DNA from: Chlorokybus atmophyticus
Lineage: Eukaryota; Plantae; Mesostigma and Chlorokybus algae
Direction: 5' to 3'
DNA: 64,000 nucleotides
Assembly (NCBI GenBank): GCA_009103225.1
Contig: RHPI01002615.1
Location: 194,328 to 258,327, forward strand
A program made the translations under genes and the position numbers. Each line of letters starts with the position of its first letter. Positions within the stretch are counted from its first letter, which is position 1. This document shows positions 4,856 to 31,684 of the stretch, one piece after another. The notes below the pieces were generated by a model that ran no database searches, was not told where the DNA came from, and saw nothing but the letters and a program-made list of their open reading frames with translations.

Positions 4856-5939
4856 CCCCCCCCCCCCCCCCCCCCCCTATGAATTGAGGAAGTATTTGCT
4901 TTGGTGAGCAGCACTCAGCGAGAGTAAGGGGGACCATGGATGCGGCAATCTTCACACCATTACGCCTCAAGGGAACAGTGTTCGTTGGAGGATCGAGATT
5001 GTGTTATTGCCAACCGTTGTTGCAGCCGCTGCACAACATTATAAGTGCATCATCGTCGGCACTGTCGCATTTCTCACAACGCTTGTTGCGGCTTGATTGG
5101 GGGTGCTGAACGATGCCAAAGCTTGCAACGTGTGGAAGGTGACATGAAGGACAATTCTTCATGTTGTTTTTAAGTCGCTCACCGTTGTTGCCGAGCAAAT
5201 CCAACACTTCAAAGAGAAGTACCTTCAGACATTGTGTAGATGACGCGGTCGACGCTAATGTCCAGAGTGTCCTTGATCTGCGTCATGCGGTAGACATAGT
5301 CGCCCGCTTCGAAGCGGCGAGTGCGCTGTTTGTAGGACCCACTGCAGATGCGCTCGTAGCGCAGCGTGTCGCGGTGCTGGGCGATGTGGAGGTTGCCCAT
5401 GGCCATGGGAATGATGTGAGCAAACAGGTAGGTGCGCAGCTGCATGTCGTGCAACATGGCCACATGGTTGTCGAGGTTGGCCAGCACGGGCTCCACTTTT
5501 TTCTGTGCGCGAAAGGGAAGCAACGGCTCTCAGCCAAACAGCAGTCGATACGGGCTGTACATGCGCCAGGAGGCTTGCTTGGACAATCGGTAGCCAAGTG
5601 CAAGCCAGGGGAGGTAGTCATCCCAAGTGCGCTTCTTGTGGTCGATGACGTATTTGCGCAACGCCTACTTGATGGTCTAAACAGTGCGCTCTGCCAGACC
5701 ATCTCCTTATGGGTGGTCGCGTGAAGTGCGACGATGGTCAATGTAAGAGCGATCCAACAAGGTGTCGAACTCTACTCCCTGGTCGAGGATGACTTCAGCA
5801 CATGAGCCGAAGCGACTGAGCACATGGTCAAAAAAGGCCTGAGCGGTTTCTCTGTTGCTCTTGTCGGCACGGGGCACCGACTCGATCCACTTGCACAAGT
5901 GCTCCATCATGACGCGGATGTGCTTGTTGCCACGAGCTG

Positions 5940-6402
5940 TGTTAAAAAAGCTAGCAACACATGTAGCTAAGGCTGATGCTGGACATGCACACACACAACG
6001 CTACAGCCGCGAGGGCATACGCAAGAGCAACACGCTCACTTGATTACAACTAAGTCAGGGGCTTTTATACCCGCTGCAAGTACACCTGTCTACTTTAGGA
6101 GCAACTGTGTACGCTACACGTTATCTATTATCATGAACGTAATTGCGTGATGTAGCTACTAACTACAACATCTTTCTAACAGGCTAAGCCACGCGCCATA
6201 AGGTGACGTATCCACTAAGTTATGAGCGTTCTTCTGCGCGCCTGGCCGTTGCGCCTAAAACCTTCTCTTCGACTAGAGTCTCCGTCTAAAACCTTTTCGC
6301 ATGGTGTCCACTCCTGGAACCATTTGATGGCTAAACCTTCGGAGCTGACGCCTATGCTTGTATAGAGGGCAAGACTGACCGAATATAGTACTATCCTGAA
6401 CA
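5940..6402 (-). repeat. Copia 3' LTR
   Basis: TGTTAA...TGAACA, roughly 80% similar by eye to 11379-11852. A short purine-rich GTGGGAG precedes it on the minus strand. Confidence 0.85.
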
Positions 6403-6439
6403 CTCCCACGCGGGCAGCTTGTCCTCAAGCCTCGAGTCT

Positions 6440-9400
6440 CTGCTCCTGCATAATTACTTGCAAATGCACAGTCCCAAACAACACACATGACACTTGAGCG
6501 CTGGCAATGCCTTTGTCATGAAGTCTCAAAGCATGGCCTCGGTGTTGCAATACCAGAAAACAACCTGCTTCTTTGTGACTCTGTCACGGACAAAGTGATG
6601 CATGACATCAAGGTACTTTGTCCTTGCTGAGGCGGTGGGATGCTTCAGCAACTCAATGGCGCCTTCGTCGTCGCAGTGGATTGTGATGCACACCTTTAAC
6701 TCCTCCGAATCTGCCTTCAGCTTGCAAAGCCACGATGCCTCCTTTATAGCTGCTGATGCTGCCGTGTACTCAGCCTCTAAAGTGGATGCCGATGTGGTTG
6801 GTTGCCTGCTAATTCAGCTCACAATGCCTCCATTTAGCTTGAAGACATAGCCGGTGGTGGACCTCCTGCTGTCAAGGCCACCTGCAAAGTTTAAGTCGCA
6901 GTAGCCCTTCAACTCAGAGCTCCAGCTCCCGAACTTGATGCCAATAGTAGCACTCCCAGCAGCATAGCGAAGTACACCCTTTGCAGCCTTCTAGTGCTCC
7001 ATGCTCGGTGCAGACATGTAGCAAGGACTGCAACAGCACGTGCAATATCTGGACGTGTGCACACTGCTAAACAGAGCATGCTGCCTACCGGTTTACCGTA
7101 TGGGTACTTGGTCTTGTCAAGAACCTCCTCAACTTTCGCCTTGACGAGGTGGGTGCCGAGTGCAAGTGGAGTGGACTTGGTCTTTGCCTTCTTAAGCCCA
7201 AACTTGGTGACAAGTCTCTTCACCATCTGCTCCTGACTGATCTTGATGGTGCGCGCCGCTCTGTCGCGCTCAATCACCATGCCAAGAAACCACTTGGCCT
7301 CTCCAAAATCACGCACTGAGAATGCCTGCAATGCCTTCTTTGTCTCCAAATTCTTCATATGCTTGGCGGTGATGATGATGCCATCCACATACACCAATAG
7401 ACCTTCTTCTCAGGGTGGAAGAAGAGTTTAGGGTCTGCTGAGGACTAAAAGCCAAGTGCCTCCAACTCTTTGGTGAGGCGGATGTGCCACATGCGTGATG
7501 TCTCAGCGCATCCAACGCGTTGATGAGCTTGCAAACATTGCCTGGCTCCCCTTCTTCACATCCTGGTGGTTGCTGGATGTGGATCGCTTCCTCAAGCTCT
7601 CCAAAGAAAAAGGCAGTCTTTACGTCGAGGTGGTAAAGCTTCTAGTCTTTAGCCGCAACAAAGGCAAGCAATGTGCGGAATGTGGCATGCTTACTTGCAG
7701 GCGCAAGGACCTCATTGACGTCTACGCCTTTTTGTTGCAAGAAGCCCTTTGCCGCCAGCTTTGCCTTGTAGCGCTCTATGTTGCCTTGACCGTCTCTCTT
7801 CACCTTGAAGACCTACTTAACAGGGATTGGTTTCTCGCCTAAAGGTAGCTTCTCAGCTACCCAGGTTTCTTTGGCATGGAGTGACGCGATCTCCTCGTCC
7901 ATGGCTTGCAGTGCCTCCTGGTATGTACTTAGCTCCTCTATGCTGTCTCCCTCTTGACACACGTTTACAAGTGCCTTGTGGTAGAAGTCAGGACTTTTCC
8001 TCTCCCGCTAAAAATAGCGACGACCAGACGCCTGCTGCTGCTCGCCTGAAAACCTTTGCGGCGCCAGAAAGTCTTCAATGATGATGCATGTCTCGCCAGA
8101 AGCCTCCACTCTCTCAAGGACCGGCTTGTGGCTGTGCCTCATTTTCATTCTCTTGAATGAAACATGCTTCTGGTAGTGACCCCTCGTGGAACACCACCTC
8201 TTTGCTGATGATGATCTTGTGGCTCTCTTGTAGCAAGATCATGTATGCCTTTGAGCCTGGTTTGTAGCCAAAAACTTTTTTCTTGCTGACTGGCCGGAAC
8301 TTGTGCCGTAGCTGCTTTGGCACCAGTGCATATGATGTGCAATCAAACACACGCATACCACTCACACCTGGTGCAGCTTCATAGAAGAGCTCCCACGGTG
8401 TCTTTTAATCAGAGCTCACAGATGACCGATTGCAGATGTAGTTGGCAGTGAGGACGGCCTCCTTCCACAAAGAGTCCTCAAACTTGCAATTGTCTAGCAT
8501 AGCCCGCACGCTCCAATAGGGTTCGGTTCAGGCGTTTAGCCGCTCCAATTTGCTGCGGAGTGTAGGGCGCCGTCTTGTCTCATGTCTTATGCCTTTGCTG
8601 GCGAAGAAGTCCTTGAACTGGGCATTGATGTACTCCCCTCCTCTATCATTGTGCATTGCCTTCATCTTCTTGCCTGATTGTGACTTCAGCAATGCTATGA
8701 CATTGCGCACAGTTCCTTCACATCCGACTTCAGGGACAGAGGATGAATGGACAGCTTGCTGTAATCGTCGAGGAAAGATGCAAAGTACCTTACCCTTCCC
8801 TTCGCTATAATGCACATAGGCCCGCATACATTCATATGCACCAACTCGCCTGGAACTCCAAAAGAAGATGACGGGAACGGCATCCTATGCTGCTTGGCCA
8901 TGGCACAGAGTTCACACAGCACACCTGAAGACGCCTGAAAGTCTTCCTTGCGGACGTGGATGCCCTTGACCATGTCTTCATCCACTAGGTGTGTGAGGTT
9001 GTTGTAGCCAAGATGCCCGAACCTCCTATGCCAAAGTTCAGCGGCTTCCTTCGCCTTCACCACGTTGGCCTTGATGCTATGACGCTGCTCCACGATGTAG
9101 AGCCCTTCTTGCGCGATGCCAACCATATGCACAACCTCATCCATGAGCACAAAGCATCGACCCTCCCAGATGATGATCTCAGCCACGCGCTTAGCAACCC
9201 TCACAAAGAATAGACTAGCAACAGCCCTAGAAACGTGCAGAACCTCTCTCTATAACACCTCTCTCACGCTATCACCAACCTTGGAATGGAGCCGCACTTT
9301 ACCCACGCCTCCAGCCTCCAGCATGTGACCTTTGAAGCCCTCCACCTTCTTTGTGGTTTGCAGCTTCCTGTAGTTCTGCATGACCTCCATGTGCGGTGTA

Positions 9401-11290
9401 AGTGCTGGTCGCATCAAGAGTCTATCGCCCATGATGTGGTAGACATCTCCCTTGATGCAGTGAAGGCAACGTTCTTCATTTTATGCCGGTCGTTGCCACT
9501 GGGTTTGGTGCTGGCTCCTTGCTCTCGTTAGCGCTTGCGACAATCTCTCACAATGTGACCCTTGAAGCCACAACAATTGCACGAGAGGTTCATGTGCCTG
9601 ATGTTGTTGTTGCCGCTTATGCCTTTATTTTTCTCTTCATGATTGTAGGGTTTGTTCTTGTTTGTGTAAAAGGCGACAGCGTCCGCGTGCTCATCCTTCT
9701 TCACCACATGTTGCTCCACAAGCAATAAGTTGGGCAAGACATCGTCCAGGGTAGAGACGGAGGTTGTACTGGCTATCATGGCAGGACTACCAGCAGGTAT
9801 GAAGTCGTCACCACTCTGCTAGAGACATTGTCATCTAGCAGAGTGGTGACGACTTCATACGTGCTGGTCAAGAAGGAGGGTGAGCCCATTATCAAGTATG
9901 TTGCGCGTGCAAGAGAGCTGTGGGCAAACCTCAACAGCGTCGGCCACAAGCTGGTAGAGACGGAGGTTGTACTGGCTATCATGGCAGGACTACCAGCAGG
10001 TATGAAGTCGTCACCACTCTACTAGAGACATTGTCATCTAGCAGAGTGGTGACGACTTCATACCTGCTGGTCAAGAAGGAGGGTGAGCCCATTATCAAGT
10101 ATGTTGCGCGTGCAAGAGAGCTGTGGGCAAACCTCAACAGCGTCGGCCACAAGCTGGTAGAGACGGAGGTTGTACTGGCTATCATGGCAGGACTACCAGC
10201 AGGTATGAAGTCGTCACCACTCTGCTAGAGACATTGTCATCTAGCAGAGTGGTGACGACTTCATACCTGCTGGTCAAGAAGGAGGGTGAGCCCATTATCA
10301 AGTATGTTGCGCGTGCAAGAGAGCTGTGGGCAAACCTCAACAGCGTCGGCCACAAGCTGGTAGAGACGGAGGTTGTACTGGCTATCATGGCAGGACTACC
10401 AGCAGGTATGAAGTCGTCACCACTCTGCTAGAGACATTGTCATCTAGCAGAGTGGTGACGACTTCATACCTGCTGGTCAAGAAGGAGGGTGAGCCCATTA
10501 TCAAGTATGTTGCGCGTGCAAGAGAGCTGTGGGCAAACCTCAACAGCGTCGGCCACAAGCTGGTAGAGACGGAGGTTGTACTGGCTATCATGGCAGGACT
10601 ACCAGCAGGTATGAAGTCGTCACCACTCTGCTAGAGACATTGTCATCTAGCAGAGTGGTGACGACTTCAAACCTGCTGGTAGTCCTGCCATGATAGCCAG
10701 TACAACCTCCGTCTCTACCAGCTTGTGGCCGACGTTGTTGAGGTTTGCTAGATGACAATGTCTCTAGCAGAGTGGTGACGACTTCATACCTGCTGGTAGT
10801 CCTGCCATGATAGCCAGTACAACCTCCGTCTCTACCAGCTTGTGGCCGACGTTGTTGAGGTTTGCCCACAGCTCTCTTGCACGCGCAACATACTTGATAA
10901 TGGGCTCACCCTCCTTCTTGAGCGCACTCAACTACTTGCTGAATGTAAGCTTTCTGGCGTTGTTCTTGGCTTGAACATTGATGCAAGCTTCTCCCAAGCT
11001 TGCCTTTCATCTTCACATGCGGTGAGCATGGGAAAGTGATGCGATTTGAAATTCAATACAAGCAACGACTGTGCTTCTGCTAAACGCTCAGACCACACAA
11101 TATTCTCCCCAGGTATTGGTGGTGGTGCCTTCAGATCCACGTACTTCCACATGTTCTTGTGGATGAGAAACGCCTTCGTCTCCACACACAATGTGATGTA
11201 GTTGTTGATGTTCAACTTCGCGGTCAACCCCTTGTTGTAGCTAGCCTCCATCTTTGCCGCGCATGCTCCTCTCCAGCAGTTGGCACCCAA
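6440..11290 (-). pseudogene. Copia gag-pol, disrupted by many stops and frameshifts
   Basis: Motifs as listed for the element; no continuous ORF. Confidence 0.9.
9751..10925. repeat. 203-bp tandem array of a gag segment, each unit containing a fold-back, ending in a long inverted repeat
   Basis: Unit start GTAGAGACGGAGG at 9751, 9954, 10157, 10360 and 10563. Perfect 27-bp arms at 9797-9823 and 9834-9860 around GACATTGTCA. Confidence 0.95.
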
Positions 11291-11364
11291 GACTCTGCTA
11301 CTCATAAGCTACCGTAGTGTAGTAACCAGTAGTGTCTGCTTCTATCACACCCTTGACACGTGGT

Positions 11365-11378
11365 GTGGGCCCATAACC
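11365..11378 (-). promoter_or_regulatory. Primer-binding site complementary to the anticodon region of tRNA-iMet
   Basis: Minus strand reads GGTTATGGGCCCAC immediately after the 5' LTR. Plus-strand GTGGGCCCATAACC equals the internal sequence of plant tRNA-iMet. Confidence 0.9.
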
Positions 11379-11852
11379 TGTTGAATAAGCTATCAACACA
11401 TGTAGCTAAGGCCGATGCTAAACATGCACACACACAACTTTACAGCCGCGAGAGCATACACAAGAGCAACATTTTCACTTGATTACAACTCAGTCATGGG
11501 CTTTTATACCCGCTGCAAGTACACCTGTCTACTTTAAAAGCAACTGTGTACGCTACACGTTGTCAACTAATATAAACTTAATTGCATTACGCAGCTAACT
11601 TCAAGAGCTTTCTAACAAGCTAAGCCACGCGCCAAAAGGTGACCTAGCCACCAAGTTATGAGTGTTCTTCTGCACGTGCCTGGAAGTCGCGCCTGGAACC
11701 TTCTCTCCGCCTTGAGTCTCCGCCTAGAACCTTCTCGAATGGTGTCCGCGCATGGAACCTTCTAGCGGCAAAACCTTCGGAGTTGACGCAAGTGCCTATA
11801 AGGGCATATATATGGTGGGCAAGGCTGACCGGTTATAGAGATAACCTCAACA
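11379..11852 (-). repeat. Copia 5' LTR with TATA box and HSE-like motifs
   Basis: TGTTGA...TCAACA. Minus-strand TATAAA at 11503-11508. GAAnnTTC at 11696, 11727 and 11755. Confidence 0.9.
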
Positions 11853-14149: not shown

Positions 14150-15518
14150 TCGAGGTCTTTATGAGGGTCCTCGGATGTAGTGCGGTAGTACTGGTTATTA
14201 ATAACCTCCTGCAAAGCTTTTTTTCACACTTTGTTTAATTTGTGCGGAGAGGGCCACCTCGTTATCATGGGTATGGGGTGCCTGGCCGTAGGCAAGAGCC
14301 AACTGCTTGCCAAACTTTTAAGTCTCATTGGAAGGTTGCTCATCATCATCCGGCAAGTCTCGACGTGGGCAGCCCCTGACCAAGTTGCGTCATTACGTCT
14401 ACATCTGGCCTTACCGTTGTGGGTGCCCTTAAATGCAGGCAAAAAAGTTTGTGTCGGAGGGAAGCACAGGAGTTGACCTACGGGGTTGGTGTTGAACAGC
14501 TTGCATGGCGTTGCGCCACGCAGCTTGACGGAAGTCCTGTAGGACTGGAGGTGTGGCTGCAAGGGCCGGCAAAAGACGAATAGCGAGCATGGCCTCACGC
14601 CAAACAGTTTGTCGTTGCTCGTGCAGCTGCTCCGGTGTGGGTGCTAGCGAGGCCTCTGCCATTAGTGAATCAACCCCGGGCCGCTGCGAGGGTGGAGAAG
14701 GATACCGGCTCGGAGGTGGGTGAGCGAGGAGGTGAGCGTCGCGTTGCCCTGACTGATTGCGTGAAGTGGGTGGCAGTGCAAGTGGCAAACTAGTTGCTGT
14801 TAAGGAGGTCTTCCAGCTAATCCCTTCGGCTGCGTAAGTCCTTATTTCCTACGAGCAGCCCATCTCTTTCGCCCTGAAGGCTGGTGTTGCCTTTGAAAAC
14901 GGAGGCAACCTTAGCTTCATGCTTGCCCCCGGCCTTGTTGCTATTAGCAGGGCCGGCTTAGCCCTTGCCTTTCCACTTGTTGGTGTTGTTGATATTGTTC
15001 CTATGGTCAGCACTAGCGCCGGCTGGAGAGGTTTCTGTTTTTGGAGCTTCCCTCAGAGCTTTCCTCTGGGAATAGTGTGTAGCACACTACCTCAAGGTGC
15101 CCGTCCATGCCGCAATGATTGCGGTGGGCATCAGCGCGTTGCACAGGGCAGTCTTTGATGAAGTGCCCTTCTTTCCCACAACGATGACAGGTCAGGTAAG
15201 AATTGTCTTCCACTCGCACAACGGCGTGGGCTGTGCGTGTGTGCTTGGGTGGTGCCGAGGTGAAGGCTGAAGCGGTGCCGCTGCTGCAATGCGCGAGGCC
15301 ACTAAATTTAGCACCATGCTCTTGCACAGGATCTTCCTGCGAGTACACGACGCGCATGTATGCCTGGTACACGGTGTAGTTGGCGACGCCGTTAAGGTCA
15401 ACCTTCACATGTTTGCGCGGAGGTGGGTCAAGATTCTCCACGAACACCCGCGTTTATTGATAAGGATTGAGGAGAGGCATCTCGTTCAGGGTGGTGTCCT
15501 CAACCAGATTGACAATGT
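14150..15518 (-). mobile_element. Degenerate gag C-terminal half of a third Gypsy subfamily, cut at 15518
   Basis: IVNLVEDT..VFVENLDP, CHRCGKEGHFIKDC and HCGMDGHLEVVC knuckles, followed by an unrecognised disrupted ORF. Confidence 0.75.
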
Positions 15519-16111
15519 TGTCATGCCTATCGCCCGGGCATGCCAGTCGTCATCGGGCATGCCTACAGCGAGACCCTCGCCCGGCTTACCAGCATGGCGA
15601 CCCGCGCGCGTCACTGACCAGTAGCTAGGTCATGTCTTTAGAGTAGCTCATGACCATAGCCTACATAGGCACCGCGCGTAGCTGTTCAGTTGTGAGTTCA
15701 GTTATAAGTTAGGTTCTATATCCTGTGGAAGTAGCCTCGATATGACCGTTAGCTTATGTTCTGGACAGTCATGAGTTGACCTGTATAAGTAGGCACAGTG
15801 TTCACCGGATCAGCTGGTGACACTGTAAGTGAGAAAGCTAAGAGCTTGTGAAGCCACTTGAACAACGAAACACGCCGTCCCGGTTCCCCAGAATCCCCTC
15901 ATCGTGTGAGAGCCTGTGCATGTTCTTGTGCACTGTGCTTGTCCTTGTTGTGAGCTTGGTGTACTTGGTCGCGGGGTGCTTGTTGGCATCAGTTAGGGCA
16001 TAGCATCCACGTGTTGCTTGCTCATTCACCTCACTTAACAGTGTAATTTCTCTTCCACTCATGCAAAGAACTGTGTAAACAGCGCTACCTATAGTAGTGG
16101 CTTGTTGACTT
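15519..16111 (+). repeat. Segment A (5' terminal/leader), copy 1
   Basis: Begins TGTCATGCC. About 98% identical to 25188 onward over the first ~165 bp, falling to roughly 80% after ~330 bp. Contains several hairpins. Confidence 0.9.
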
Positions 16112-16321
16112 ACACTGTCACCCTCTTTGCTCAAGTGAGTGTAGTTGCAGGCTACACATCAGCATCGCAATCTGTAGTTGTACACATCTTAGTGCAGTGT
16201 TGTCACCGTCATCGCATAGCGCGCACAAGCACTAGTGTGTTGGGTGATAGCAGCATTGGAGATCCCACTGTAGAGCACAAACACTCTACCCTTCATCCAC
16301 TTTCACCATCGCATCAGATGT

Positions 16322-18124
16322 ATGAGCAGGCCCACCCCTGTCTCGCCAATAGAAGAATGGAACCTCAACAGCTGGAGCCCAACCTCCAACCTTACCTACG
16401 AGCGCGCAAGTGAAGGGAGCGATTACCGTAGCAGCAGAGGCTCACGCCCCGTCTCCGGCTTCACCTCCTCTCACTCCACTCCTCGACAACGAGCATCTCC
16501 ACCACCGTCGGACAGTGACGACGAGGAGATGGAGCCTTCCAGCTCAATCAACTCCCTACGCTTCTCCGGATGCCCTGGCACCACTTCACTTGACGAGTTC
16601 ATCATCAAGTTCCACTCCAAGATGCGGCAGCAAGCCCTCAAGGGCAAGGACTGGACAGATGAGGTATCATTTCATGTGTCTGCTCAATACCTTGATCACG
16701 AAGCACATGATGTGTGGAAGTCCGTCGCTGAGTTGCACGAGATTGATGGCTATGGCGAATTGGCCAGCACAATATCCTCCACGTCACTGCATAGCCCATC
16801 GGTTACTGTCCCTATAACAGCGGCCCCGCCAGCCTCAGTCACGGGTCTCACTCTAGCTGCAGCCACGGAGAAGGCAGAGAATGAAGAAGTTGAGGTGGTA
16901 GTGGCCTCATTGACTCCTGCAGAGATCGAAAGCAAGAAGGCCGAGCGCCGGATCAGGATACTCAACCGCACCGCTGCCATCATCAGGGAGCAACAAGAGG
17001 AGCAGCAAGCTGCAGCATTGGAGATGGGTACGCCCCTGCTATCAACACCGAACTCGCGCGCTCCAGCGGGAGGCAGTGTTTTCACCCTCGGCTCAGTGGC
17101 ATTGCGTGCACCCGCGCTTACGGTGGGCGCGGCCATGTCGGACTCCCCGTTGAAGGACCTCTACGCCGCACTCCGGCGCACCTTCCCACCTCAAACCAAC
17201 AGCAAGGTGGAGGAGTTGAGGCGTTTTCGACGGAAGCCCCACGAGGACCCTCTCCGACTGTATTCACGGTTGGAAGGGTTGCTTAAAGACACTGACTACA
17301 AGATCGTCAGTGAGGAGGCGGCAGCAGTGGTGTATGTGGCCGAGTTGGATCCCACCCTGAGCAAGTCAACGCGCCTGACGCTGAACTACAGCAGGCCCCT
17401 CGGCTACACCCTCAATGAAGCTTTTGAGACTGCGCAAGCCATCCATAAGCGCGCAGTGTATGAGAAAGCGGTGCTGGATACCAACCGCAGTGCCTCGCGG
17501 CCTATGGTAGGCACAAGTGCAGAGCCTCTTCGGCGGGACCGCAGCCGAGAGCCGCAAGGCATCCACAACAAGGATAAACGGTTAGCTCATGTTGCCCTTG
17601 TGGCTCCAGTGCTGTGCCATCGGTGTGGTCGACATGGCCACTACCAAAAGGCGTGCACCGAAGATTACGGCAACCTTGTGTGCGACTACTGCCACAAGAC
17701 GGGACACTTGGAGACAGTATGCTGGCTCAAGTTCCCTGAGCTGCGGCCCTCTATTGGCTACAACAACGGCAACAACGCTGTTGGCTACCGCGGCAACAAC
17801 AACAACAACAACGGGGGCTACAACAACAGCAACCACGCTGGCGGCTACAACAATGGCAACAACGCTGGTGGTCGCAACAACAACAACAACAACAACGCTG
17901 GGGCCCGCAAGGAAGAAGCTGGCTACAGAGGGAAAAACCGCCCTCCACAGCACAACGGACCTGAGGGACGTCCTCGCGCTGGAGCTGCTGCTGTAAAGGC
18001 ATCAGCCAATCCACCAGCTATTGACCAAGTGGCAGCCCTGATGGCGCGCGTGGCACAGCTGGAGGAGAACAAGGAGCAGGACTATCATTCCTGCTATGCT
18101 GCTAGGTGGGCATTGATGGCATAA
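16322..18124 (+). pseudogene. gag: Gag with two CCHC zinc knuckles and an N/G-rich tail
   Basis: 600-aa ORF with CHRCGRHGHYQKAC and CDYCHKTGHLETVC. The TAA at 18122 corresponds to CCA in the sister copy (~27474), so the ORF originally continued. Confidence 0.9.
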
Positions 18125-18559
18125 AAACGGGATAGGGACACTCCCACGCCGTCACGCGTACAACCATCAAGACGTGCGCGCAGGGAAGCTGACGCGTCGT
18201 CAACAGCGGCATCGTCGGACGCCACAAGTGGTGCTGCCTCGGCGGCCACAGCCACTGTTGGGACAACGCCGTCGGCGACACCGTTGGCGTCCACACCGAC
18301 CACGACAGCAGGTGTCAGCACTCTTGGCACCACGCTGTCCCCGGTGATGGAAAGCACCCACGCCGCAACAACCATGGTCGTTGGGTTTGTGGGTGGTGAA
18401 TCCACCACTCCTGCCTCCATCGAAGCGACCACATCGGCCACAACAACTGCCACCCTCACAGCCGCCACCTCAGTAATGACGACTGCTGCAGGTGCCACCA
18501 CAATCGCCTCCAGTAGTGCTACCGCACCCACTACACCACTTCCTGAGATTCGAACGGCA

Positions 18560-20100
18560 CCGCCACCAGCGCTTGACGTCATACAGCAAGTGCCATGCGG
18601 ACCACAAGCAGAACGCGCCTGGGCGTCCGTTCTACGCAACGTGGAGCCCACCACCATTGCGTACGGAGCAGGGGGCAACGCACCACGCGCGTGGCACGCG
18701 ATGATCGCATCTTGCCCCTACCACCTCCAGAGTACCACACACTGCCGGAACCCACACAACAGCAGCTGGAGGATGTAATCCTCGCCGGCACTGCACCAGA
18801 GATGAGGGATCGTCTCTTCGGGGTCACCTACCAGCGACCTGCAGTGTTAGAGCTGGTCATTCAGTTGTTCTTAACGTTACACGCACGATTACAGGGCGCA
18901 CCCAGTCAAACGCGGCAACCCATGCCCGCTCAATAGATCGACTTCGAGCCCTCGCCACTGGACCCACTCGGACTCCAGCGCCACAACATGCAAGACCTCG
19001 TGGTCACCATGTTAGACATTGCGCTAGGCGCTGATCTCGCTCTCCGGGGGCTCACTCCAGGCAGTCGTCAAGAGCGGTTCTCTGCCCTCGAACAGGCACA
19101 TCGTTATCAGGTGGACCAAGCTGCCCAAGTGGACGCGCGCCGACAGGCGTACGAAGCAGCGCACGCCGTTATCGTATTAACCGTAGCCCCGGCAAATGTT
19201 GCCAGCGCCTCCACGGCGCTGACCACAATGTACTCCACGGCGGTCGCCATCGAACAGCCAAGACAAGCAACTGTTGCAGACTAAGCGAGGGCCTTGGCGC
19301 AACAATTAAGGGGGGTAATCGCCCCGCTGCTGCCTCTTTTGGTCGAAGACATACCTGAGGATCAACGCGATGCAGGGCGAGGGTACCTCACCCCGCAAGG
19401 GGACACCACACAACGAGGAGGAGCTGGTATGGTGGGGGAGCAACAACTCCGTACCGCACTCATTTGGCAAGCAGTCATGTTGTACAGGCCTGAGGGCAAC
19501 ACATTAAGACAGATAATGGGGATGCGAGAGGGCAGCGCCGCTCGAGCCCGTCTCATGACATGGCTCGTTGCCAATCACCTGGCTGTCCCCCTGTTTGCCT
19601 TTGGCAACCGAGCATCATGGTTGAGGGCATTCGTTTGTTCGCTGCAACAAGCATACGACGAGGCTGCCACCACAGCCCCGGACACGCTGGAGGGAGTGCA
19701 AGAGGCAATGCTGCGGCTGCCAGGGGTGGAAGCCGCACGACAACGGCGGCGCATCGCCATTGCTCATGAGCTACACACACAGCAGACTGACCTCCAGCGC
19801 ACCCTACGCGCGCGCGCCATGACCGTGCTCGATGTTGGAGTGGTACAAGGAAGGTGGGATGCCTACGGTAGGGAGCTTGCGAGTCCCCACCATCACCCAC
19901 GACATGCGGCGACAGCTACTACGCGCCGTATATCTGCAGCCCATGCCTCAATATCATCACTGGACCGACATGGACACCGAGCCCACGGCTACGTGGGAAG
20001 GGACGTTGGTCAGAGAAGCGGCTCATGCTGTCCGATGGACGTACACCGCGAAGCAAGCTGAACGCGAGGCAGGCCCACAAACACCGGGTCCGCCGGGGTT
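18560..20100 (+). pseudogene. Unknown conserved region between gag and protease
   Basis: Conserved with 27890-29350 at the protein level (DQRDAGRGYLTPQG, LFAFG.R..WL.AF, GRWDAY, LLRAVYLQPMP, LVREAAHAVRWTY). Confidence 0.8.
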
Positions 20101-20299
20101 TCCTCCACAGCCATTGGGTACACCCGCGGGCATGATTCCATCTTCGCAGAGGCTGCATCCACCTGCGCCGCCACCACAACCGGCGCCGGAACCTCCAGCA
20201 CCGAGGCCCCCCCGTGTCTACCAACACCACGACAAGGTCGGTTCGGCAGAGGGAGAAGGCAAGGAGGGGCTCTCCGGCACCAGCAGGCAGAGGAGCTCT

Positions 20300-20800
20300 G
20301 GCTGCAATGCGCTCAGCACCCCCAGTTGAGAGAACTGAGGCAAAGGTACAGACAGCTTGGATGAAGAGGCTGCGCATCAACGCCAATGCTGCCATGGTGG
20401 CCAACCAAAGCAAGCACGTTACCATTAACGGCCTGGCACCTAAGCGAGTAATGTTGGACACCGGAGCACAGCCTGTCATTATCGAGCGCTTCCTCGCGCG
20501 GTCCCTCGGCATAACCAGCTCCGACTTGGTGCCTTGCCCGTACGTGTTGGACACTGCCACAGGTAGCCGAGATAAGGTGATGGGAGTCACCAGGGAGGCC
20601 TTTTGCATTCGTTCAACAGAGCTGGACTGAACCCACACAACCGAGATCGTCCAGCAATGTGTGATCACCAATGCCGGCTCCTTCGACTTTGTGTTTGGGC
20701 AGGACTTCAACTTCCCTGTGGGCATGGGCCTCGACTGCTGGACAGAGCGAGCGTGGTTTCGGCCACATTGGGATGAGGATGACGGAGAGGTGCAGGGTTT
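20300..20800 (+). pseudogene. Retroviral-type aspartic protease
   Basis: RVMLDTGAQPVII (LDTG at 20454-20465) and downstream FDFVFGQDF (LG.DF-like motif). Confidence 0.85.
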
Positions 20801-21183
20801 CTCGCCTCTTAAGTTGGTCGCGCACGCGCGCCCAACGCAAAGTGGCTGCTGTGGCCACACGCGGCCACGCCCGCACACGGGAGGCTGCAACGGCCACATA
20901 CGACGGCGCTCGGACGCAAGTCGCTGCTGGAGCCACGGCCCCGTGTCGATCCGTTGACTCCTCTCCCACCCCGTAAAACGAGGAGCAGGAGGATGCCACC
21001 GTGGAAGTAGCATTACAAGACCCAGCTGAACGGCGCTGGCGCGCACAGATGGACGCACACGTCTTGCTCAGCCATCCACTGATCACCACGCGCTTCCCCA
21101 ACTACTGAAGCCACAACAAGGTGCAGGACCACCATATGGTGGTCACCGGAGTGGTGGAGTTCCACACCTTTTGCAGGCAACAG

Positions 21184-21570
21184 GGCATCACAGTGTTGGA
21201 GCTGTTTGGAGGCATTAGCAGTGGTCTTGCCGCGGTCCTCAACACGGGTGTGAAGGTTGTCAAATACTATTACTGCGACCCAGACCCACACGCGCAAATG
21301 GTCCTCAATCAACCCGATCAGCCCCGTCGCGCACTCCCCACATTGGTGTCCTACCCGGGCTCCTACGCATTTCGGAACGGTGGAGACGGGATGGTGTTTA
21401 ATGCGACCACCAACAGGCTGGAGGAACCCAACGCACGCGAACGTGGACGCGCCATGGGGTTCTTCCCCAACAGCATCACGGGCTCATCGCTGACAGATAG
21501 TCAGCAATGCCAGCTGCTTGGCCGCGCCATGGACCAGAACAGCATGGTATGGCTGCTGGAGCTGAGCTTC
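21184..21570 (+). pseudogene. DNMT3-like C5-cytosine methyltransferase remnant (motifs I-II fused to the C-terminal region with motifs IX-X)
   Basis: GITVLELFGGISSGLAAVLNTGVKVVKYYYCDPDPHA resembles DNMT3 IRVLSLFDGIATG..LG..V..Y..SEV. ERGRAMGFFPNSITGSSLTDSQQCQLLGRAMD resembles [31 protein letters not shown]. Confidence 0.85.
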
Positions 21571-21789
21571 GCATTGCAGGACCGCCACGTGACCTTCGAG
21601 GATCTCGAACACTTGGCTGGGGGGTGGGCTGATCGCGTTGCCGACACCAAGGCAGCTCACACAGCCCTCGAGGTGGTCCACATGGAGGAGCAAGCAGCAG
21701 TGCCAGTGGAGGACATTCCCGTGGTTGCCAATGCGACCTCATGGGACCATGCCATTGGCCCTTTGGCCACAGAAGACACTCGAGAGAGA

Positions 21790-22700
21790 AGCTGGAGGCT
21801 CTCTTCAACAAATGGAGGAGCCAATTCAGCTTCTATGTGAAGGAATTGGGTACATGCTCAGTGTACCAGATGGACATCGAGCTGGTGGACACTGAGCCGG
21901 TGTTCCGGCGGCAATACAGGCTCTCCAAGTTGGAAGAGGACCTGGTGGAGCAGAGATGTAAGGCGCTGCTTGATGCAGGCCTTATCGAAGAGTCTACATC
22001 GGACTTCGCAGCAGCAACCGTCATGCCATTGAAGAAGGATTCAGCAGGCACCTGGACAGAGCGACGCATGTGTGGCAACTATCGCCCCCTCAACAACAAG
22101 ACCAAGCAAGATAGGTACCCCATGCCCACAGCAGAGGGTATCTTTGATGATGTGAGAAACTGCACAGTCTTCAGCATCCTGGACATGCGTCAAGGGTACA
22201 ACCAAATCGCCATCAAGGACGAGGACAAGCACAAGGCCTCTTTCCGGGGCAACCGACAGTTGTACCAATGGAAGGTAATGCCGTTCGGGCTGAAGAATCA
22301 TTCTTCAAGAATGCCCCCGCCAAGTTTCAACACGTCATGGACAAGGCCTTGAAGGGTTTGGACTTCGCGCGGTGCTACATCGATGACATTCTCATCTTCA
22401 GCCGCAGCAACGAGCATCTTCAGCACATCGAAGCGGTGCTGAAACGACGAAGGGAGTGGGGATGACCGTACACCCCGACAAGTGTACCTTCTTCACCCAC
22501 AAGGTGCCGTACTTAGGGCACATGATTGTGCCCCATGGTGTGTATGTGCAGCAGGCAAAAGTAGAGGCTCTAGCAGCTATCCCTGCCCCGACAGACCTCA
22601 CACGTTTGCGCACTTTCTTGGGACTTGCCAACTATCGCCGGTTCGTGAAGGACTTCGCGAAGATCGCAAGGCCCCTCAACGAGCTACTGAAGAAGGAGGT
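21790..22700 (+). pseudogene. Reverse transcriptase
   Basis: RMCGNYRPLN, DRYPMP, FSILDMRQGYNQI, YQWKVMPFGLKN, YIDD at 22376-22387, KCTF..VPYLGH, FLGLANYRRFV. Frameshifted. Confidence 0.95.
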
Positions 22701-22789
22701 GGAGTTCGCATGGAAGGAGCCGCAACAGCTGGCCTTCAAGGAGCAAAAGAGCAGGCTCACCACCGCTCCCATCCTTCAACGTCCGGACT

Positions 22790-23160
22790 ACGCCAAGCCT
22801 TTCATCCTTCACACCGATTGGAGCAAGCTGGGAATGGGAGCGGCGCTGGTGCAGCACGATGAGAACAAGAAGGAGCGAGTGGTGTCATACGCCAGCCGAA
22901 GCAACAACAGCGCCGAGGCCAACTACAGCAGCTACGAAGGGGAGTGCCTCGCTGCAGTGTGGGCCATCTCCTTCTTCCGACCTTTCCGCTTTGGTCGGCA
23001 ATTCTAACTGATCACCGATCATCAGCCCCTCAAGTGGCTGATGACCAACCAACATCTGACAGGGAAACTTGCTCAATGGGCCCTGCTGTTGCAGGAATAC
23101 GACTTCGAGATCGACCACCGCGCTGGCCTCACCAACCAAAACGCCGATGGCTTCAGTCGC
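22790..23160 (+). pseudogene. RNase H
   Basis: FILHTDWSKLGMGAAL, YASRS..EANYSSYEGECLAAVWA, ITDHQPLKWL, LQEYDFEIDHRAG..NADGFSR. Confidence 0.95.
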
Positions 23161-23499
23161 AAACCTCACCTCAGTTGCGTCGTTGGTGCACCAACGACGC
23201 AACCAGAGCTCGGCATGAACTCGTCCCTGCAGCAACAGCCCCCACCATGGCAGTTATGTTTGCTGCTGCCGCGTTGCGCTCAGTGCGGAAGACCAACACC
23301 ACGACCTCAGCAGTGGCAGAAGAGATTCCTGCCCTTGAGCCTACCGGCCCTGCGGCAACCACACCCTTGGGAGACGCCCACGCAGCCAACATTGAAGTCG
23401 ATGACACAGAGCTGGCGCCCACTGACAACAGGCATGACATATGGCGGGACAAGCCATCACTCTCCTTCCTTCAAAGTGGCCAGCTTCCCTCCGGCATGA

Positions 23500-24899
23500 G
23501 TGCCCGAGAGAAGGACCGTGTCAACCAACGCACCCGTCACTATCGATGGGTTGGTGACAAGCTGTATCGCCGGTTCCACAACGAAGACAAGAACGTGCCG
23601 ACACCGGTCACGCGCGAGGGCATCATCACTTCCCTCCACATTGAGCTTGGACACTTCGGTGTCAAGCGTACAGTCAGCCTAGTGAGGGCACAATATTGGT
23701 GGTATGGGTTAACAAAACAGGTGCAGGGGTTCGTTAGCCACTGCCAGCAGTGTGACATGGTACGCGCCAGCCTCAACACGCGTAGCGCTACCTTGCACCC
23801 ACTCCCCATCTCCGGTCTCTTTTACCGATGGGGGCTCAACATTTTCGGGGACTTGGCACCCTCAGCGCGTGGCAACCGTTACATCCAAGTCATGATCGAG
23901 CACTTCTCCAAATGGGTGGAGCTGGTACCATTACCCGACAAGAGCAGCCAGGGGGTGTCTCAAGCCTTTCTCTCTCACGTTTCCAGCCGATTTGGCAGCT
24001 GCGCCGAGGTCATCACTGACCTAAGTACTGAGTGAAAAGGGGAATTCGACACCCTCTTGGACAAATGTTACATCGACCACCGTCGTACCTCGCGTGATCA
24101 CCCTCAAGCCGACGGTCTCGCCGAGCGTACAGTGCAGACCATCAAGAAGGCACTCCGCAAGTACGTGCTGGAGTACGAGAAGAACACTTGGGATGACCAC
24201 CTCCCGTGGGAGGCCCTCGGATATCGATTGTCAAAGCAGGCGGCTCTGCGGGAGTACAGCCCGTACCACCTGCTGTTCGGGCGACCACCATTGCTCCCCT
24301 TCCGTGCGCAGCAGGAGGTGGATCGCGTCGTGAACAACCTCGACGACCCTGACTGGATGCACCACGACATCATCACGCGCGCCGTGCTTTTCGAGCGCAT
24401 CGTCCCCATGGCCTTCAACAACCTGCGCATCGCGCAGCATCGCGACACGCTGCGCTACGAGCGCGTACGCAGCGGCTTCTACAAGGAGCGCCAACGGCGG
24501 TTCCAAGCGGGGGACTTTGCCTATCGCATGGCAGCCACCAAAGACACGCTTGACACCTCCGCAGGCCGCACCGTCTACAAGGTACTCAAAGTGTACCCCA
24601 CAGGGGTGCTGGACCAACTTGGTCAAAACGGAGAGAGGTTGAAGGACAACATGGTGAACTGTGCGCCATGTCATCTTCCTTACGTAGCCGGCTTCGGGCA
24701 TATCCAGCACCCTCGTTCCGCGCGCAGCACACGCTGTGAACGCTGCGGCAGCGCCGGAGACGACGCACTCATGATGCTCTGCGATGGCTGCAACAAGGGC
24801 CTGCATTGCTACTGCCTGGAGCCACCTTTGAACGCGATACCTATGGAGGAGTATTGGTGCGACGATTGCCGTACCAACGGCCCTCCTCACTTGCGCTAG
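23500..24899 (+). pseudogene. Integrase with C-terminal PHD finger
   Basis: HHCC motif (LHIELGHFG..CQQC), core region VITD and GLAERTVQ, and a C4HC3 PHD at 24735-24869. Confidence 0.92.
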
Positions 24900-24949
24900 C
24901 AGCTGAGCTCTAAAGCTGGAACCTCCCCCAGAGCCCAGGGGGGGTGGCT

Positions 24950-25185
24950 TGTTGACTTTGTGTGCTACAGCACAGCATGTACACTAGGGAAAACACCGAC
25001 TCCACCTGCCCGTACTACCCAGCAGCAGCAGACCAGCTGCACAATGCACTTGTCACCATGAGGGTTGGGGTCATCTTTTGCTTTTGCTGCGCGTTACACA
25101 GGTGGCGCAGCAGCATGCCTAGCAAGCATGGCTGTCCATGCAGCTGTCCGAGACAGCGTGACCTTCGACTCCCCTCGACCCGACA
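24950..25185 (+). repeat. B-type terminal repeat (3' LTR-like, 236 bp)
   Basis: TGTTG...CGACA directly after the PPT. About 75% similar to 29358-29591. Confidence 0.85.
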
Positions 25186-25187
25186 GC

Positions 25188-28100
25188 TGTCATGCCTATC
25201 GCCCGGGCATGCCAGTCGTCATTGGGCATGCCTACAGCGAGACCCTCGCCCGGCTTACCAGCATGGCGACCCGCGCGCGTCACTGACCAGTAGCTAGGTC
25301 ATGTCTCTAGAGTAGCTCATGACCATAGCCTACATAGGCACCGTGCGTAGCTGCTTGTGAGTTCAGTTATAAGTTGGGTTCTATATTGAGTGGGGATTTC
25401 CTGTGAAAATAGCCTCGATATGACCGTTAGCTTATGTTCTGGACAGTCATGAGTTGACCTGTATAAGTAGTCACAGTGTTCACCGGATTAGCTGGTGACA
25501 CTGTGAGTGAGAAAGTTAAGAGCTTGTGAAACGACTTCAACTGCGAACACACCTTCCCGGTTGCCAAGAACCCCCTCATTGTGTGAGAGCCTGTGCATGC
25601 TCTTGTGTGCATCGTGCTCGTCATTGCTGTGAGCTTGGTGTGCCTGGTTGCAGTGTGTTTGTTGGCATCAGCCAGAGCATAGTATCCACGTGTTGCTTGC
25701 TCGTTCACCTCACTTAACAGTGTAACATATTTTCCGCTCATGCAAAGGACTGTGTAAACAGCACTATCTATAGTAGTGGCTTGTTGACTCCTCCAACCTC
25801 ACCTACGAGCGGACCAGCGACGGGAGCAACGATCGTAGCAGCAGAGGCTCGCGTTCTGTCTCCGACTTCACTCCGTTCCTGTCCACTCCTCGAGCTTCCC
25901 CACTTTCGTCCGACAGTGACGACTACGAGATGAAGTCTTCCAGCTCAACCACGTCCCTGCGCTTCTCCGGACGTGCTGGCACTACCTCGCTAGTCAAATT
26001 CATCATCAAGTTCCACTTTAAGATGCGACAGCAGGCTCTGAAGAACAAAGACTGGTCAAATAAGATCTCTTTTCACACTGCCGCTCACTATCTGGATCAT
26101 GAAGCACATGATGTCTGGAAGTCTGTTGCTAAACTGCATCGAGTGGATGGCTATGGCAAGCTCGCCAGTACCATCGCACCTGCGTCACTGCACACTCCAG
26201 CAGCCGTCTTTCCATCTGCCACTCCCGCAGCAGTCACCGGGTTGTCCATAGCGGCAACCATTGACAGAGCAGGAAGAACCTGAGTTGGTGATCGTCAACC
26301 TGACCCCTGCAGAGATTGAGATCAAGACGGGCGCACGACGGGCCCGCATCCTAGACCAGCCTGCTGTCATCCTTGAGGAACAACGCACAGCAGCAGTTGA
26401 GGTGGGCACACCCCTACCTATGGCAACAGCTGGCTCTCGTGCGGGAGGCAATGCTTTCACCCTCGAGTTAGTTGCACTGCGCGCACCAGCTATCACTGTA
26501 GGTGCTGCCATCTCTGACTCTCCACTCAAGGATCTATACGCTGCACTTCGTCGCACCTTCCCACCTCAGACCACTAGCAAAGTAGAGGAGTTAAGGCGGT
26601 TCCGGCGCAAGCCCAATGAGGACCCCTACGCCTGTACTCCAAACTGGAAGGGCTGTTGAAGGACACTGACTACAAGATCGTCAGTGACGAGGCGGCTGCA
26701 GTGGTATATGTCAATGAGGTGGATGCCACCCTGAGCGAGTCGACGCACCTGACCCTGAACTGCAGCAGGCCCCTTGGCTACACGCTCAAAGAAGCTTTTG
26801 AGACTGCACAAGCCATCCATAAGCGCTTGGTGTATGAGAAGGCAGTGCTGGACACCAACCACAGCATCTCTCGGCCTGCAGCCAGCACCACTGCCGAGCC
26901 TCTTTGCCGCGAATGTGGCCGGAATGCTCCACCAGCACGCGACAAAGGGAAACGGTCAGCGCATACTGCTTTGCCTGCCCTTGTGCTGTAACATCGCTAT
27001 GGACGGCATGGGCACTACAAAAAGGAGTGCACTGAAGAGTACTCAACTCTGGTCTGCAACTACCGTCACAAGACAGGCCACTTGGAGTCAGTCTGCTGGC
27101 TCAAGTTCCCTAAGTTGAGACCCGCCAACAGCTACAACGGCAACAACTCTAGTGGCTACAACAGCAACAACACTGGAGGCCACAACGGCAACAACTCTGG
27201 TGGCTACAATAGCAACCATACCGGAGGCCATAACAACAACAACAACCATGCCAACGCTCGCAAGGAAGAGCAAAGCTACAGAGGGAAGAATCGCCCTCCT
27301 CAGCGCAAGAGACTGGAAGAACGTCCGCGCGCTGCTGCTGTTGCTGTCAAGGCTCCAGCCAACCCGCCAGCTGATGACCATATGGTTGCCCTCATGGCGC
27401 GTATGACACGCTTGGAGGAAGACAAAGAGCAGGATTACCGCGCCTGCTACTCTGCCCGGTGGGCACTCATAGCTCCAAAGCGCACGAGAGACACCAGTAC
27501 ACTGTCACGTATTCAACCAGCTCAACGGGTTCGAGGGGAAGCCGCAACATCATCAGCAGCCACCTCCTCTGAAGCCACCAGTTGCGCTGCACCAGCAGCG
27601 ACAGTTACACCGGCTATGACGTCAACTTCGTCAGCGTCAGCAGCAACTGCTGCAGTTTTACCACAAGTGGGTATACCAGTGAGCACCGTAACGCCACACC
27701 ACAGGTGAGCACGCTGGCAATAGCCACTGCTGTTACCGACCCTGCAGCAGCAAGTCGCACCGGTCCCGCTCCATCTGCAGGACCACCTGTGTTAGCGAGC
27801 GTTGAGACCACTCTCGCGCCACTGAGCGGCACTCTCGCCACCACCGGCAGTGCCATTGTTAAACCCGCTGCCACTGCAGCGACACGCGCAGCTACATTGC
27901 CCGCCCTCGACGTCACTCAAGCTGTCCCGCGAGGTCAGCAAGCTGAGCGTGCTTGGGAGACCATCATGCGCGGAGCCGATCCCGCTACCATTGCTTTTGG
28001 GCGCGGAAGGGAGCGCACAACACGCGTTGAACGCAGTAACCGCGTTTTCTCACTGCCTGAATATCACACCCTGTCAGCTTAGACTCAGCGGCAACTGGAG

Positions 28101-29591
28101 GATGAAATCCTCGCCGGCACGGCTCCTCCCATGCGAGACGGCTTCTTTGTGGTCAGAACACCTGTTGTACTGGAGTTGGCACTACAACTGTTCTGGACTC
28201 TGCATAACGACATGCAGACTACGCCGTGCTAGCCCGCACCATTCCGTCATAAACCCTTTAAGTCAAGCCCGCTGGACACGTATTGGGACCGGCAACCCAA
28301 CGTACAGCAGCACATCGCTGATACAGCCGACATGCCTCTAGGTGACAACGAAGCACTGAGGCCCCTCAGTACCGTTCGGCTTTATGAGCGCTACACCGCT
28401 CTGAAACAGGCGTTCACCTGGCGACAGGACCAAACGGCAGCAATCAATGCAAGAGCGCAAGCCCTTGCCACTGCTCGCGCTCTAACTTTTCAACCAACAG
28501 TTGCTGGCCCATCATCCAGCACGACACCTCTCGTCGGTGAGCCCGACATTGACCAGGCGAGGGCGCTGGCCCAACAATCCAGGGGGGTGATCGCCCCGCG
28601 GCTGCCCGCCTTGTTGGAGGACTTTTTTGACGATCAACGGGATGCAGGGAGAGGTTACCTCACACCGCAAGGGTGGACACAACGAGATGGAGCAGGTTCA
28701 ATCGGAGAACAGCAACTTCGCACTGTCCTGTTGCGGCAAGCAACTATGCTGCACAGACAAGAAGGCATTGGCCTGAGACGGATGTTGGGGATGCGAGAAG
28801 GTGGTAATGCAGCTCGAGCAAGACTGGTGACTTGGCTAGTCACTAATCACCCCACAGTCCCCCTGTTCGCATTCGGCACCAGATTGTTTTGGTTGGACGC
28901 CTTCCTTCGCTCACTACGGCAAGCCTATGACGAGGTTGCCTCGGCAGCCACTGACACCTTGGAAGGCTCGAGAGGCCATCATGAGGTTGCCAGGGGTGGA
29001 AGCGGCGCGGCAACGCACACGCATCGCAGCTGCTTATGAGCAGCATGTCCAACAGCCAGAGATTTACCTCACTGTGCGGGCACGAGCAACAACGGTGCTG
29101 GAAGTGGGGGTGGTCAATGGCAGATGGGATGCCTACATGGCAGGGATGTTAAGGGTTCCCACCATCACCCACGACATAAGAGCGCGGCTCTTGCGCGCAG
29201 TGTATCTCCAGCCCATGCCTCAGAATCACTGCTGGAGTGACGTGGTCAACAATCCAACAGCCACATGGGAAGCTACACTGGTCAGGGAGGCAGCTCATGC
29301 AGTACGCTGGACTTATGTGGAAGAGCAGGCACGGGAGGCGGGCCCACAAACTTAGCTTGTTGACTGTGTGTTCTACCGCACAGCCTGTACACTAAGGAGG
29401 ACACCGCCTCCACCTGTCCGTGTAATTCAGCGACAGCGGAGCAGCTCCACCAAGCACTCCTCGCCATACGAGCTGGGTTATTTTTTACTTTTGCTACATG
29501 TTATAACATGTTGCAGCGACAGGCCTAGCAAGCATGTCTTTCCCTGCAGCGGCCCGAGATAGTGTGACCCTTGACTGTCCTCGACCCAACA
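25188..29591 (+). mobile_element. Tandem, pol-deleted derivative (segment A - gag - unknown region - B repeat)
   Basis: Collinear with 15519-20080 (SLRFSG, SPLKDLYAALRRTFPPQT, knuckles, DQRDAGRGYLTPQG), then jumps at ~29351 to the B repeat ending CAACA. Confidence 0.9.
29358..29591 (+). repeat. B-type terminal repeat (234 bp)
   Basis: TGTTG...CAACA with a perfect 5-bp terminal inverted repeat, followed by ATGT. Confidence 0.85.
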
Positions 29592-30272
29592 ATGTGGACA
29601 AGCGCACAGCAGTCATGCAAGTGTGTTCGTGTGTGGTTCAAGTGTGCTAAGTAATGCGAGTTGACGTATTGCAAACACTCCCCTAACAGCAAGCTAATGG
29701 ATGCCAACAACCATAATTGTGGTTTTGCAAGGCATGCAAAGTACCGTGTTAAACAGAGGTGATGCAGTTTGTAGGCAACGGGGCGGTGGCCACGCCAAGA
29801 GGTTAACACAAAAATGCGAATAAACAGAGCATTCAAGGGCAAGACAACAGCAGGTTGAAAGTATACGGCAAGGGGATTTAAGCAACAGCTCTCACAAGTT
29901 CAGCTCTCACACAATGAAGCGTGCATGCACGCGGTTCGCCTAGACTCAAGTATGAGTTATGGTAACCTTCGAAAGTCTTGGTAGGAACGCCGCCGCTTCC
30001 GCGCCACTCCGCTTACCAGCAACTTACTACGGACCAATCTCATAGGGTTTGCTTTAGGAAGCTGTCGATGTTGGCCGCCGCCACCACTCTTGCTTTTAAT
30101 TGGCTAACACCATTAGATGTGTCGATGGGTCTTGTCATGCTGTCCGACACCTTGCGAACCGGTTTGACCGATCCACATGGTGGTGAGGGTGCGCAAGGGG
30201 ATTGAGGGGACAATGTGTGCCGAGGGTGATTACCGTGACATGTACGTGTATGTGCGTAAAGATCAAACTGTG

Positions 30273-31684
<1,412 letters not shown>

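Follow-up and report, generated by a model that had tools for sequence, protein, structure and literature searches.

A Pol-borne DNMT3-like methyltransferase remnant in a dead Ty3/Gypsy element of Chlorokybus atmophyticus, and its relatives across green algae

The element and its surroundings

The sequence analyzed here, which we refer to as the window, is a 64,000-nucleotide (nt) stretch of Chlorokybus atmophyticus DNA (contig RHPI01002615.1). It includes a gene-dense host region (32095-59697) that encodes thymidine kinase, a CbiX chelatase, an ERGIC-type protein, ATP synthase OSCP, V-ATPase subunit d, a SARAF-like protein, and an ankyrin protein. Five exons of the V-ATPase subunit d gene (50874-52751, plus strand) are 94 to 100% identical to the EukProt entry jgi/Chlat1/1076; the exon at 51516-51878 matches it at 100% over 121 amino acids, the next best match being at 74 to 75%. 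Chlat1 is the JGI code of C. atmophyticus, a green alga of soil and freshwater that belongs to the early-branching streptophytes. Several other stretches of the window are likely assembly artifacts: a 1.4-kb poly-C run (30278-31684) and a poly-G run (39776-39919), both beside Ns, a GA run of 595 nt (63041-63635), and a near-exact 463-nt copy of 27845-28307 that lies beside an N at 35037-35499.

The window also holds retroelements of more than one kind. A minus-strand Copia element (5940-11852), with LTRs that are 82% alike and a near-perfect 203-nt tandem and inverted array in its gag (9750-10921), is nested in an integrase-PHD fragment of a related Gypsy element (4917-5939). Minus-strand fragments of Gypsy RNase H and zinc-knuckle gag lie at 149-1018 and 14300-15518, and it is into the second of these stretches that the element of interest (15519-29591) has inserted.

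This insertion runs from an initial TG to a final CA and lies between two identical copies of a 4-nt target-site duplication, ATGT (15515-15518 and 29592-29595, plus strand like all features of the element given below). Its ends were fixed independently of the duplication, by repeat alignments. The repeats are laid out as A1-coding-B1-A2-(3.6-kb relic)-B2, which also fits a tandem of two subfamily units; no conventional LTR pair with a tRNA primer site could be defined at the element. Repeat A1 (15519-16110) starts with TG, carries a TATA-like site (15784-15789), and is 89% identical to A2 (25188-25789). Over the first 296 aligned nt the two copies are 97% identical and over the last 291 nt 87%, with the TATA-like site just ahead of this drop; the repeats suggest that only the first part of A was copied at the latest insertion. 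Repeats B1 (24950-25185) and B2 (29358-29591, the right end of the insertion according to the repeat alignment) both run from TG to CA and are 77% identical. B1 and A2 are joined via two letters, and a 12-nt motif from the end of each A copy occurs again across the start of B1. Directly ahead of B1 lies a purine-rich tract (24930-24949), recognized by direct reading of the sequence and presumably PPT-like in role. Between A2 and B2 there is a diverged second gag-plus-spacer relic without pol (25790-29351), 72% identical to 16383-18251 and 70% to 19279-20082.

The coding part follows the Ty3/Gypsy order of protease (PR), reverse transcriptase (RT), RNase H (RH), and integrase (IN), and its full order is Gag-PR-DNMT-RT-RH-IN-PHD. 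A Gag-like open reading frame (ORF) with zinc knuckles (16274-18124; 616 codons from stop to stop) has a weak zf-CCHC match (E 0.01) and aligns by tblastn to residues 139-358 of a related protein, P0001 (E 3e-9). It is followed by a degenerate spacer (18125-20360), of which a 70% identical copy lies at 28551-29351. Its tested ORFs had no Pfam match and the intact relative P0009 has no counterpart to it; the spacer is likely a broken extra coding region. This 2.2-kb region between gag and protease is about 70% conserved in the second unit (27939-29351), and it may possibly represent an extra ORF of the subfamily. Next come the aspartic protease (20361-20783; Asp_protease_2, E 1.1e-7), with its LDTG at 20454 and a stop at 20628; reverse transcriptase in three frames (21756-22527; RVT_1, E 9.4e-9, and tblastn to P0002); RNase H with a stop at 23005 (22711-23166; RT_RNaseH_2, E 2.8e-31); and integrase with its C-terminal region and a stop at 24033 (23406-24734; Integrase_H2C2, E 4.4e-15, and tblastn to P0002 residues 757-1250). 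A PHD finger (24735-24869; PF00628, E 4.2e-9) ends Pol, which terminates 9 codons further on.

The methyltransferase segment and its missing core

A first-pass annotation made from the letters alone had read the segment between the LDTG-bearing protease and RT as a cytosine methyltransferase of the DNMT3 type. The peptides it cited do lie in a single open frame there, within an ORF at 21109-21840. The profile search it proposed as a check had a split outcome. A Pfam scan of the segment alone returned nothing at E ≤ 1 and a PDB sequence search no meaningful match, but a family hidden Markov model (HMM) of 324 positions, built from relatives, scored the real ORF at 147 bits versus 9.1 for the top of 1,000 shuffles. 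The failure of Pfam and PDB on the segment alone reflects the deletion of its core and not an absence of homology. Compared with the intact relative P0001, the segment aligns (E 5.5e-27) as two blocks that correspond to residues 856-898 and 1097-1203, with a gap between them. The family HMM likewise matches in two pieces, positions 1-42 at 21181-21306 and 237-323 at 21301-21561, and in six frames of the whole window it had no match beyond 21181-21561.

The N-terminal block of the remnant (21181-21306; E 1e-12) holds motifs I and II, and the C-terminal block (21307-21561; E 1e-30), where the family profile was aligned to DNMT3A 245-286, holds the end of the target-recognition region and motifs IX and X. 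Motif I thus comes first and motifs IX-X last, the normal, non-DRM order. Motif numbers are the customary ones, and motif positions were set by the alignment of the family to DNMT3A. The motifs named in the first-pass annotation are present, but it makes no mention of the roughly 194 profile positions (43-236), the catalytic motifs among them, that are missing in between. The loss, of about 195 codons, is in frame, and its junction (21306-21308) shows 3 nt of microhomology. Judged from these alignments, the deletion has taken motifs IV (with the catalytic cysteine), VI, and VIII out of the window copy. Since these motifs are deleted, this copy cannot methylate, and the earlier suggestion that the element might do so fails for it; its Pol is further broken by stops and frameshifts, giving nine lesions besides the deletion.

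Sister copies were followed in contigs from two public sequencing runs of two studies, X1 and X2, mostly 90 to 99% alike to the window; none of the sequencing-run matches listed was an RNA data set. Runs X5 and X6 yielded no aligned contig and run X3 none at the junction, and these three were left out of the evidence. Contigs at a depth of 33 to 47 in both runs exit the window sequence behind 21308 and re-enter it before 21306, so that three letters fit either side. The 30 loose letters per side, read by eye, are in frame and resemble the core-flanking residues of P0001, and one X2 contig (record 10) has 488 extra nt at the junction. The sister copies thus likely keep the enzyme core that the window copy has lost; the core is visible 30 letters deep per side, and the catalytic cysteine of these copies is presumed.

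The same contigs bear on the reading frame. The three RT lesions of the window copy, a 2-nt insert at 21782, a 14-nt insert at 22293, and a shift near 22440, are absent from sister contigs, the two inserts from high-depth ones. Sister contigs also have no stops at 20628, 20974 (altered in both runs), and 21106, and in X1 only, an additional 2 nt at 20817 bring protease and DNMT into the same frame. Because sister copies are free of the 2-nt slip, which had been predicted near 21785, DNMT and RT formed one ORF, as had also been proposed; in P0009 the two likewise share a single ORF. By this comparison, the window copy has decayed, and the usual form of its family has PR, DNMT, and RT in a single frame.

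A misassembly at the deletion, with the locus in reality intact, appears very improbable. Such an error would be in keeping with the other artifact-like stretches of the window and with the junction itself, which no contig bridges among the 16 pieces listed of 41. Logan contigs, however, drop rare variants, so that a single-copy junction need not show up, and both the microhomology and the nine other Pol-killing lesions argue for genuine decay. We conclude that the segment is almost certainly a DNMT3-like remnant within the Pol of a dead Ty3/Gypsy copy.

Relatives with two domain orders

A search of longer proteins found 4 relatives among 2,397 candidates, 3 of which carry PF00145 (E ≤ 5e-4). 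The relative P0009 is one ORF of 2,300 amino acids that carries Gag, PR, PF00145 (E 1e-8), RT, RH, IN, and PHD in the order of the window. With its DNMT as query, 63 proteins were recovered among 2,131 candidates, and a profile run against 1.84 billion representatives gave at least 150 relatives, the best 150 of which all cover the DNMT; larger totals from that search are inflated, as part of the integrase is in the profile. That the window copy alone took up a piece of a host DNMT3, by a single capture or as a nested insertion, would suit a segment so short and without a Pfam match by itself. Yet the longer form in sister contigs, the domain order of P0009, the whole domain in 63 and in at least 150 relatives, and DNMT and integrase trees that each split by architecture on one branch leave this explanation with a negligible chance, and we consider it ruled out. 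The segment is thus a feature of the whole family.

The DNMT3-like identity proposed at the outset is borne out by these relatives. A 74-row family profile scored E 1.4e-23 against DNMT3A, compared with 6e-13 or weaker for DRM-type enzymes and 3e-9 for HhaI. An AlphaFold model of the intact relative P0304 (pLDDT 96.9) had DNMT3A as its top Foldseek match (E 7.4e-21, TM 0.71/0.80). The family domain is thus DNMT3-like, with a predicted DNMT3A-like fold in an intact relative. The catalytic domain of human DNMT3A (PDB 6w89 and 2qrv) is its best match by both sequence profile and fold, at 22 to 24% identity, but the retroelement domain lacks PWWP and ADD and is longer in the region ahead of motif IX. 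A viral-contig scan gave only distant C5-methyltransferases (best E 7e-16, 25 to 44% identity, among the best 80 of 487), with no close viral source of the domain apparent among them.

Of the 202 relatives, 188 have the motif IV cysteine, with truncated proteins among the misses, and the conserved motif IV cysteine and motif VI glutamate are found in 24 of the 27 relatives with the window's order; the motif VI glutamate is invariant in 74 aligned relatives. Motif IV mostly reads Glu-Cys instead of Pro-Cys, and its final residue is Gly in 24/27 proteins of the window's type and Asp in 112/128 of the second type described below. In 25 loci the domain is complete, every one of them of the second, chlorophyte-type architecture; for their closest nonidentical pairs, dN of the DNMT was 0.08 to 0.15 with dS saturated or 2.5, values like those of RT and integrase. 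In these chlorophyte-type loci, then, the substitution pattern points to purifying selection on the DNMT.

Two architectures could be distinguished among the 202 proteins. The DNMT follows the protease or precedes RT, as in the window, in 27 of them, and follows RNase H or lies just before integrase in 128; the remaining 47 were too short to place, and P0029 and P0071 were left unplaced, with the protease far upstream. The second order was also seen in the DNA of metagenome loci, often in a single frame. The window's order was absent from the best 35 of 54 metagenome loci, and none with RT or RH had it. We looked up 24 proteins by name. The seven named proteins of the window's type are all from streptophytes (Klebsormidium nitens GAQ93235.1 and six from Closterium), and the three that were both named and placed in the second type are all from chlorophytes (two from Haematococcus lacustris, one from Hariotina reticulata).

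In an integrase tree of 54 rows, the two architectures fell on opposite sides of one branch (support 99/91). The DNMT tree of all 198 usable rows was split in the same way (support 87), as was a tree of 41 rows (99/100) comprising 21 window-type and 20 second-type sequences, 17 of the latter drawn randomly. Both the window remnant, whose row fills 39% of the columns, and GAQ93235.1 lie on one side of the 99/100 branch with 19 other window-type rows, as seen in the kind of phylogenetic comparison with Klebsormidium that the first-pass annotation had suggested. Because the integrase and DNMT trees have no outgroup, they show two lineages and not one origin.

Elements of the second type (proteins P0016-P0072, P0105, P0019, P0020 and others; loci L081-L104) often continue beyond the PHD finger with a Tudor-like stretch (PF21743, E 9.5e-5 in P0079). 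Their C-terminal domain has DPWxGxG and SP(W/H)F-like motifs, and the tail exceeds 200 amino acids in 51 of 87. The tail of P0105 is placed by Atlas near N6-adenine methyltransferase clusters (score 0.94 to 0.95). Second-type elements may act on both 5mC and 6mA, and would then be separate from the EpiLTRs described in the part of a recent report available to us (10.64898/2026.05.21.726589).

The chances seem to us evenly balanced that all of these elements belong to one ancient Gypsy lineage, which would have acquired its DNMT3 before the chlorophyte-streptophyte split, or moved across it, and kept the domain since. Streptophyte members (Chlorokybus, Klebsormidium, and Closterium) would then carry it in the PR/RT position, and chlorophyte members (Haematococcus, Hariotina, and many metagenome contigs) in the RNase H/integrase position, with Tudor-like and adenine-methyltransferase-like parts after the PHD.

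Known elements and possible roles

A precedent in Klebsormidium, which had been named in the first-pass annotation, does exist: KnitGypsy-Dnmt3 is described, in the accessible part of the 2018 paper, as a capture in the K. nitens lineage (PMC5890265). According to the same text it is, like the window element, a streptophyte-algal Ty3/Gypsy whose Pol includes a Dnmt3-like domain in unrearranged form, and its repeats follow a DIRS-like A-coding-B-A-B order, compared with A-coding-B-A-(relic)-B here (PMC5890265). We infer that GAQ93235.1 (P0368), in which DNMT follows PR and which has a match to each block of the remnant (E 2e-15 and 1e-7), is a KnitGypsy-Dnmt3 copy. The two elements differ in genus, with about 42% identity; the window copy has no catalytic core and has a 3.6-kb gag relic between A2 and B2. 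Since its domain groups with GAQ93235.1 and the Closterium proteins, the window element joins the published Gypsy-Dnmt3 kind. As in that kind, the DNMT lies inside the Pol ORF without introns in P0009 and in sister contigs, the window copy itself being frameshifted. The window locus is a dead copy of the kind described in 2018.

Other known systems are more distant. SymbioDIRS-Dnmt3 of Symbiodinium likewise has a Dnmt3-like domain in the Pol ORF, in two domain orders, but belongs to the tyrosine-recombinase DIRS elements of dinoflagellates, as far as the accessible text goes (PMC5890265), whereas the window element is a Gypsy with a DDE integrase; we rejected a SymbioDIRS type upon finding an H2C2 plus rve integrase. 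EpiLTRs of Cymbomonas and Euglena are also LTR elements with a cytosine methyltransferase and a chromatin reader, but in the text available their DNMT is sister to DNMT4, is joined with DAM and a chromodomain, and is called distinct from streptophyte Gypsy-DNMT3 (10.64898/2026.05.21.726589), in contrast to the DNMT3-like domain and PHD found here. An EpiLTR or DAM-LTR was rejected as well, as ORFs of the element had no Pfam match to an adenine methyltransferase or chromodomain and Pol ends after the PHD. Chlamydomonas Gypsy-7a_cRei and REM1, compared by description only, are green-algal Gypsy elements whose Gag-Pol has a PHD too, but for which the accessible description names no methyltransferase (PMC9940879).

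Gypsy-DNMT3 elements were still listed for streptophytes in 2025 (PMC12344493) and 2026 (10.64898/2026.05.21.726589), in the portions available. Our literature search, largely of freely accessible papers, found nothing on DNMT-bearing retrotransposons of Chlorokybus, Closterium, or Haematococcus and no publication on a green-algal Gypsy with both a PHD finger and a DNA methyltransferase. Nor was the form with DNMT in the RNase H/integrase position found in print, which is weak evidence of novelty.

Taken together, the best explanation is that the locus holds a gutted DNMT3-like remnant in a dead Ty3/Gypsy element whose intact copies likely methylate their own new cDNA, a reading to which we assign a probability of roughly 0.8. 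For the intact copies specifically, self-methylation of cDNA is the likeliest single role, although we would put it at about even odds. Pol would be packaged into particles and then cleaved by its protease, and the DNMT, freed or still tied to RT, would use SAM to place 5mC, probably in the CG context, on double-stranded cDNA before or during integration. The PHD on integrase would read histone tails and pick the insertion site, and the new copy would arrive pre-marked like host chromatin. This role is suggested by the position of the DNMT in Pol, by the conserved catalytic residues, and by the activity of a DIRS-borne Dnmt3, for which de novo CG methylation in yeast is reported and cDNA methylation proposed in the accessible text (PMC5890265). 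Weighing against it are the negative yeast result for KnitGypsy-Dnmt3 and the absence of extra CpG depletion in the element, both given below.

In the same family and the same dead copy, the DNMT could instead act once the element has integrated, with the insertion site or host chromatin as its target and the PHD-bearing integrase as its guide, which we regard as possible but doubtful. The PHD finger at the end of Pol would suit such a role, as would the second architecture, where DNMT adjoins integrase and could remain joined to it, and the 2018 paper, in its accessible part, raises effects on insertion-site chromatin (PMC5890265). In the window's own architecture, however, RT and RH lie between DNMT and integrase, and the PHD is absent in 6/9 window-type relatives with a long enough tail.

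Retention of the domain for a noncatalytic role, such as cDNA or RNA binding or a decoy for host DNMT3 partners, seems less probable still. KnitGypsy-Dnmt3, the sole Gypsy-borne copy tested so far, produced no methylation in yeast, which would be expected of such a role; in the text available its authors deem the result inconclusive because DNMT3B failed too (PMC5890265). Also compatible with it are the Glu-Cys form of motif IV in place of the usual Pro-Cys and the finding that CpG is no more depleted in the element than in its host background, with an observed/expected ratio of 0.69 to 0.94 in its coding parts versus 0.76 in the gene region; in related loci this ratio is variable, 0.28 to 0.98 without a host control. 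Nevertheless, the cysteine, the Glu-Asn of motif VI, and the arginines of motif VIII are among the best-conserved columns across relatives that are only 30 to 45% identical.

The value of the finding lies in its range, which adds Chlorokybus as an early-branching streptophyte alga, as well as Closterium and, with a second DNMT position, chlorophytes. Related elements have a distribution among green algae that extends well past the single alga of the original description, and over a hundred intact ORFs carry the domain. If the reading as one ancient lineage is true, it would supersede the published capture in the K. nitens lineage, and the chlorophyte members would be dual writers of 5mC and 6mA. 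The puzzle is that of a retrotransposon carrying an enzyme that hosts use to silence retrotransposons, and this question becomes easier to test now that there are numerous natural variants with an intact ORF, some of them from algae that can be grown in culture, for instance Haematococcus.
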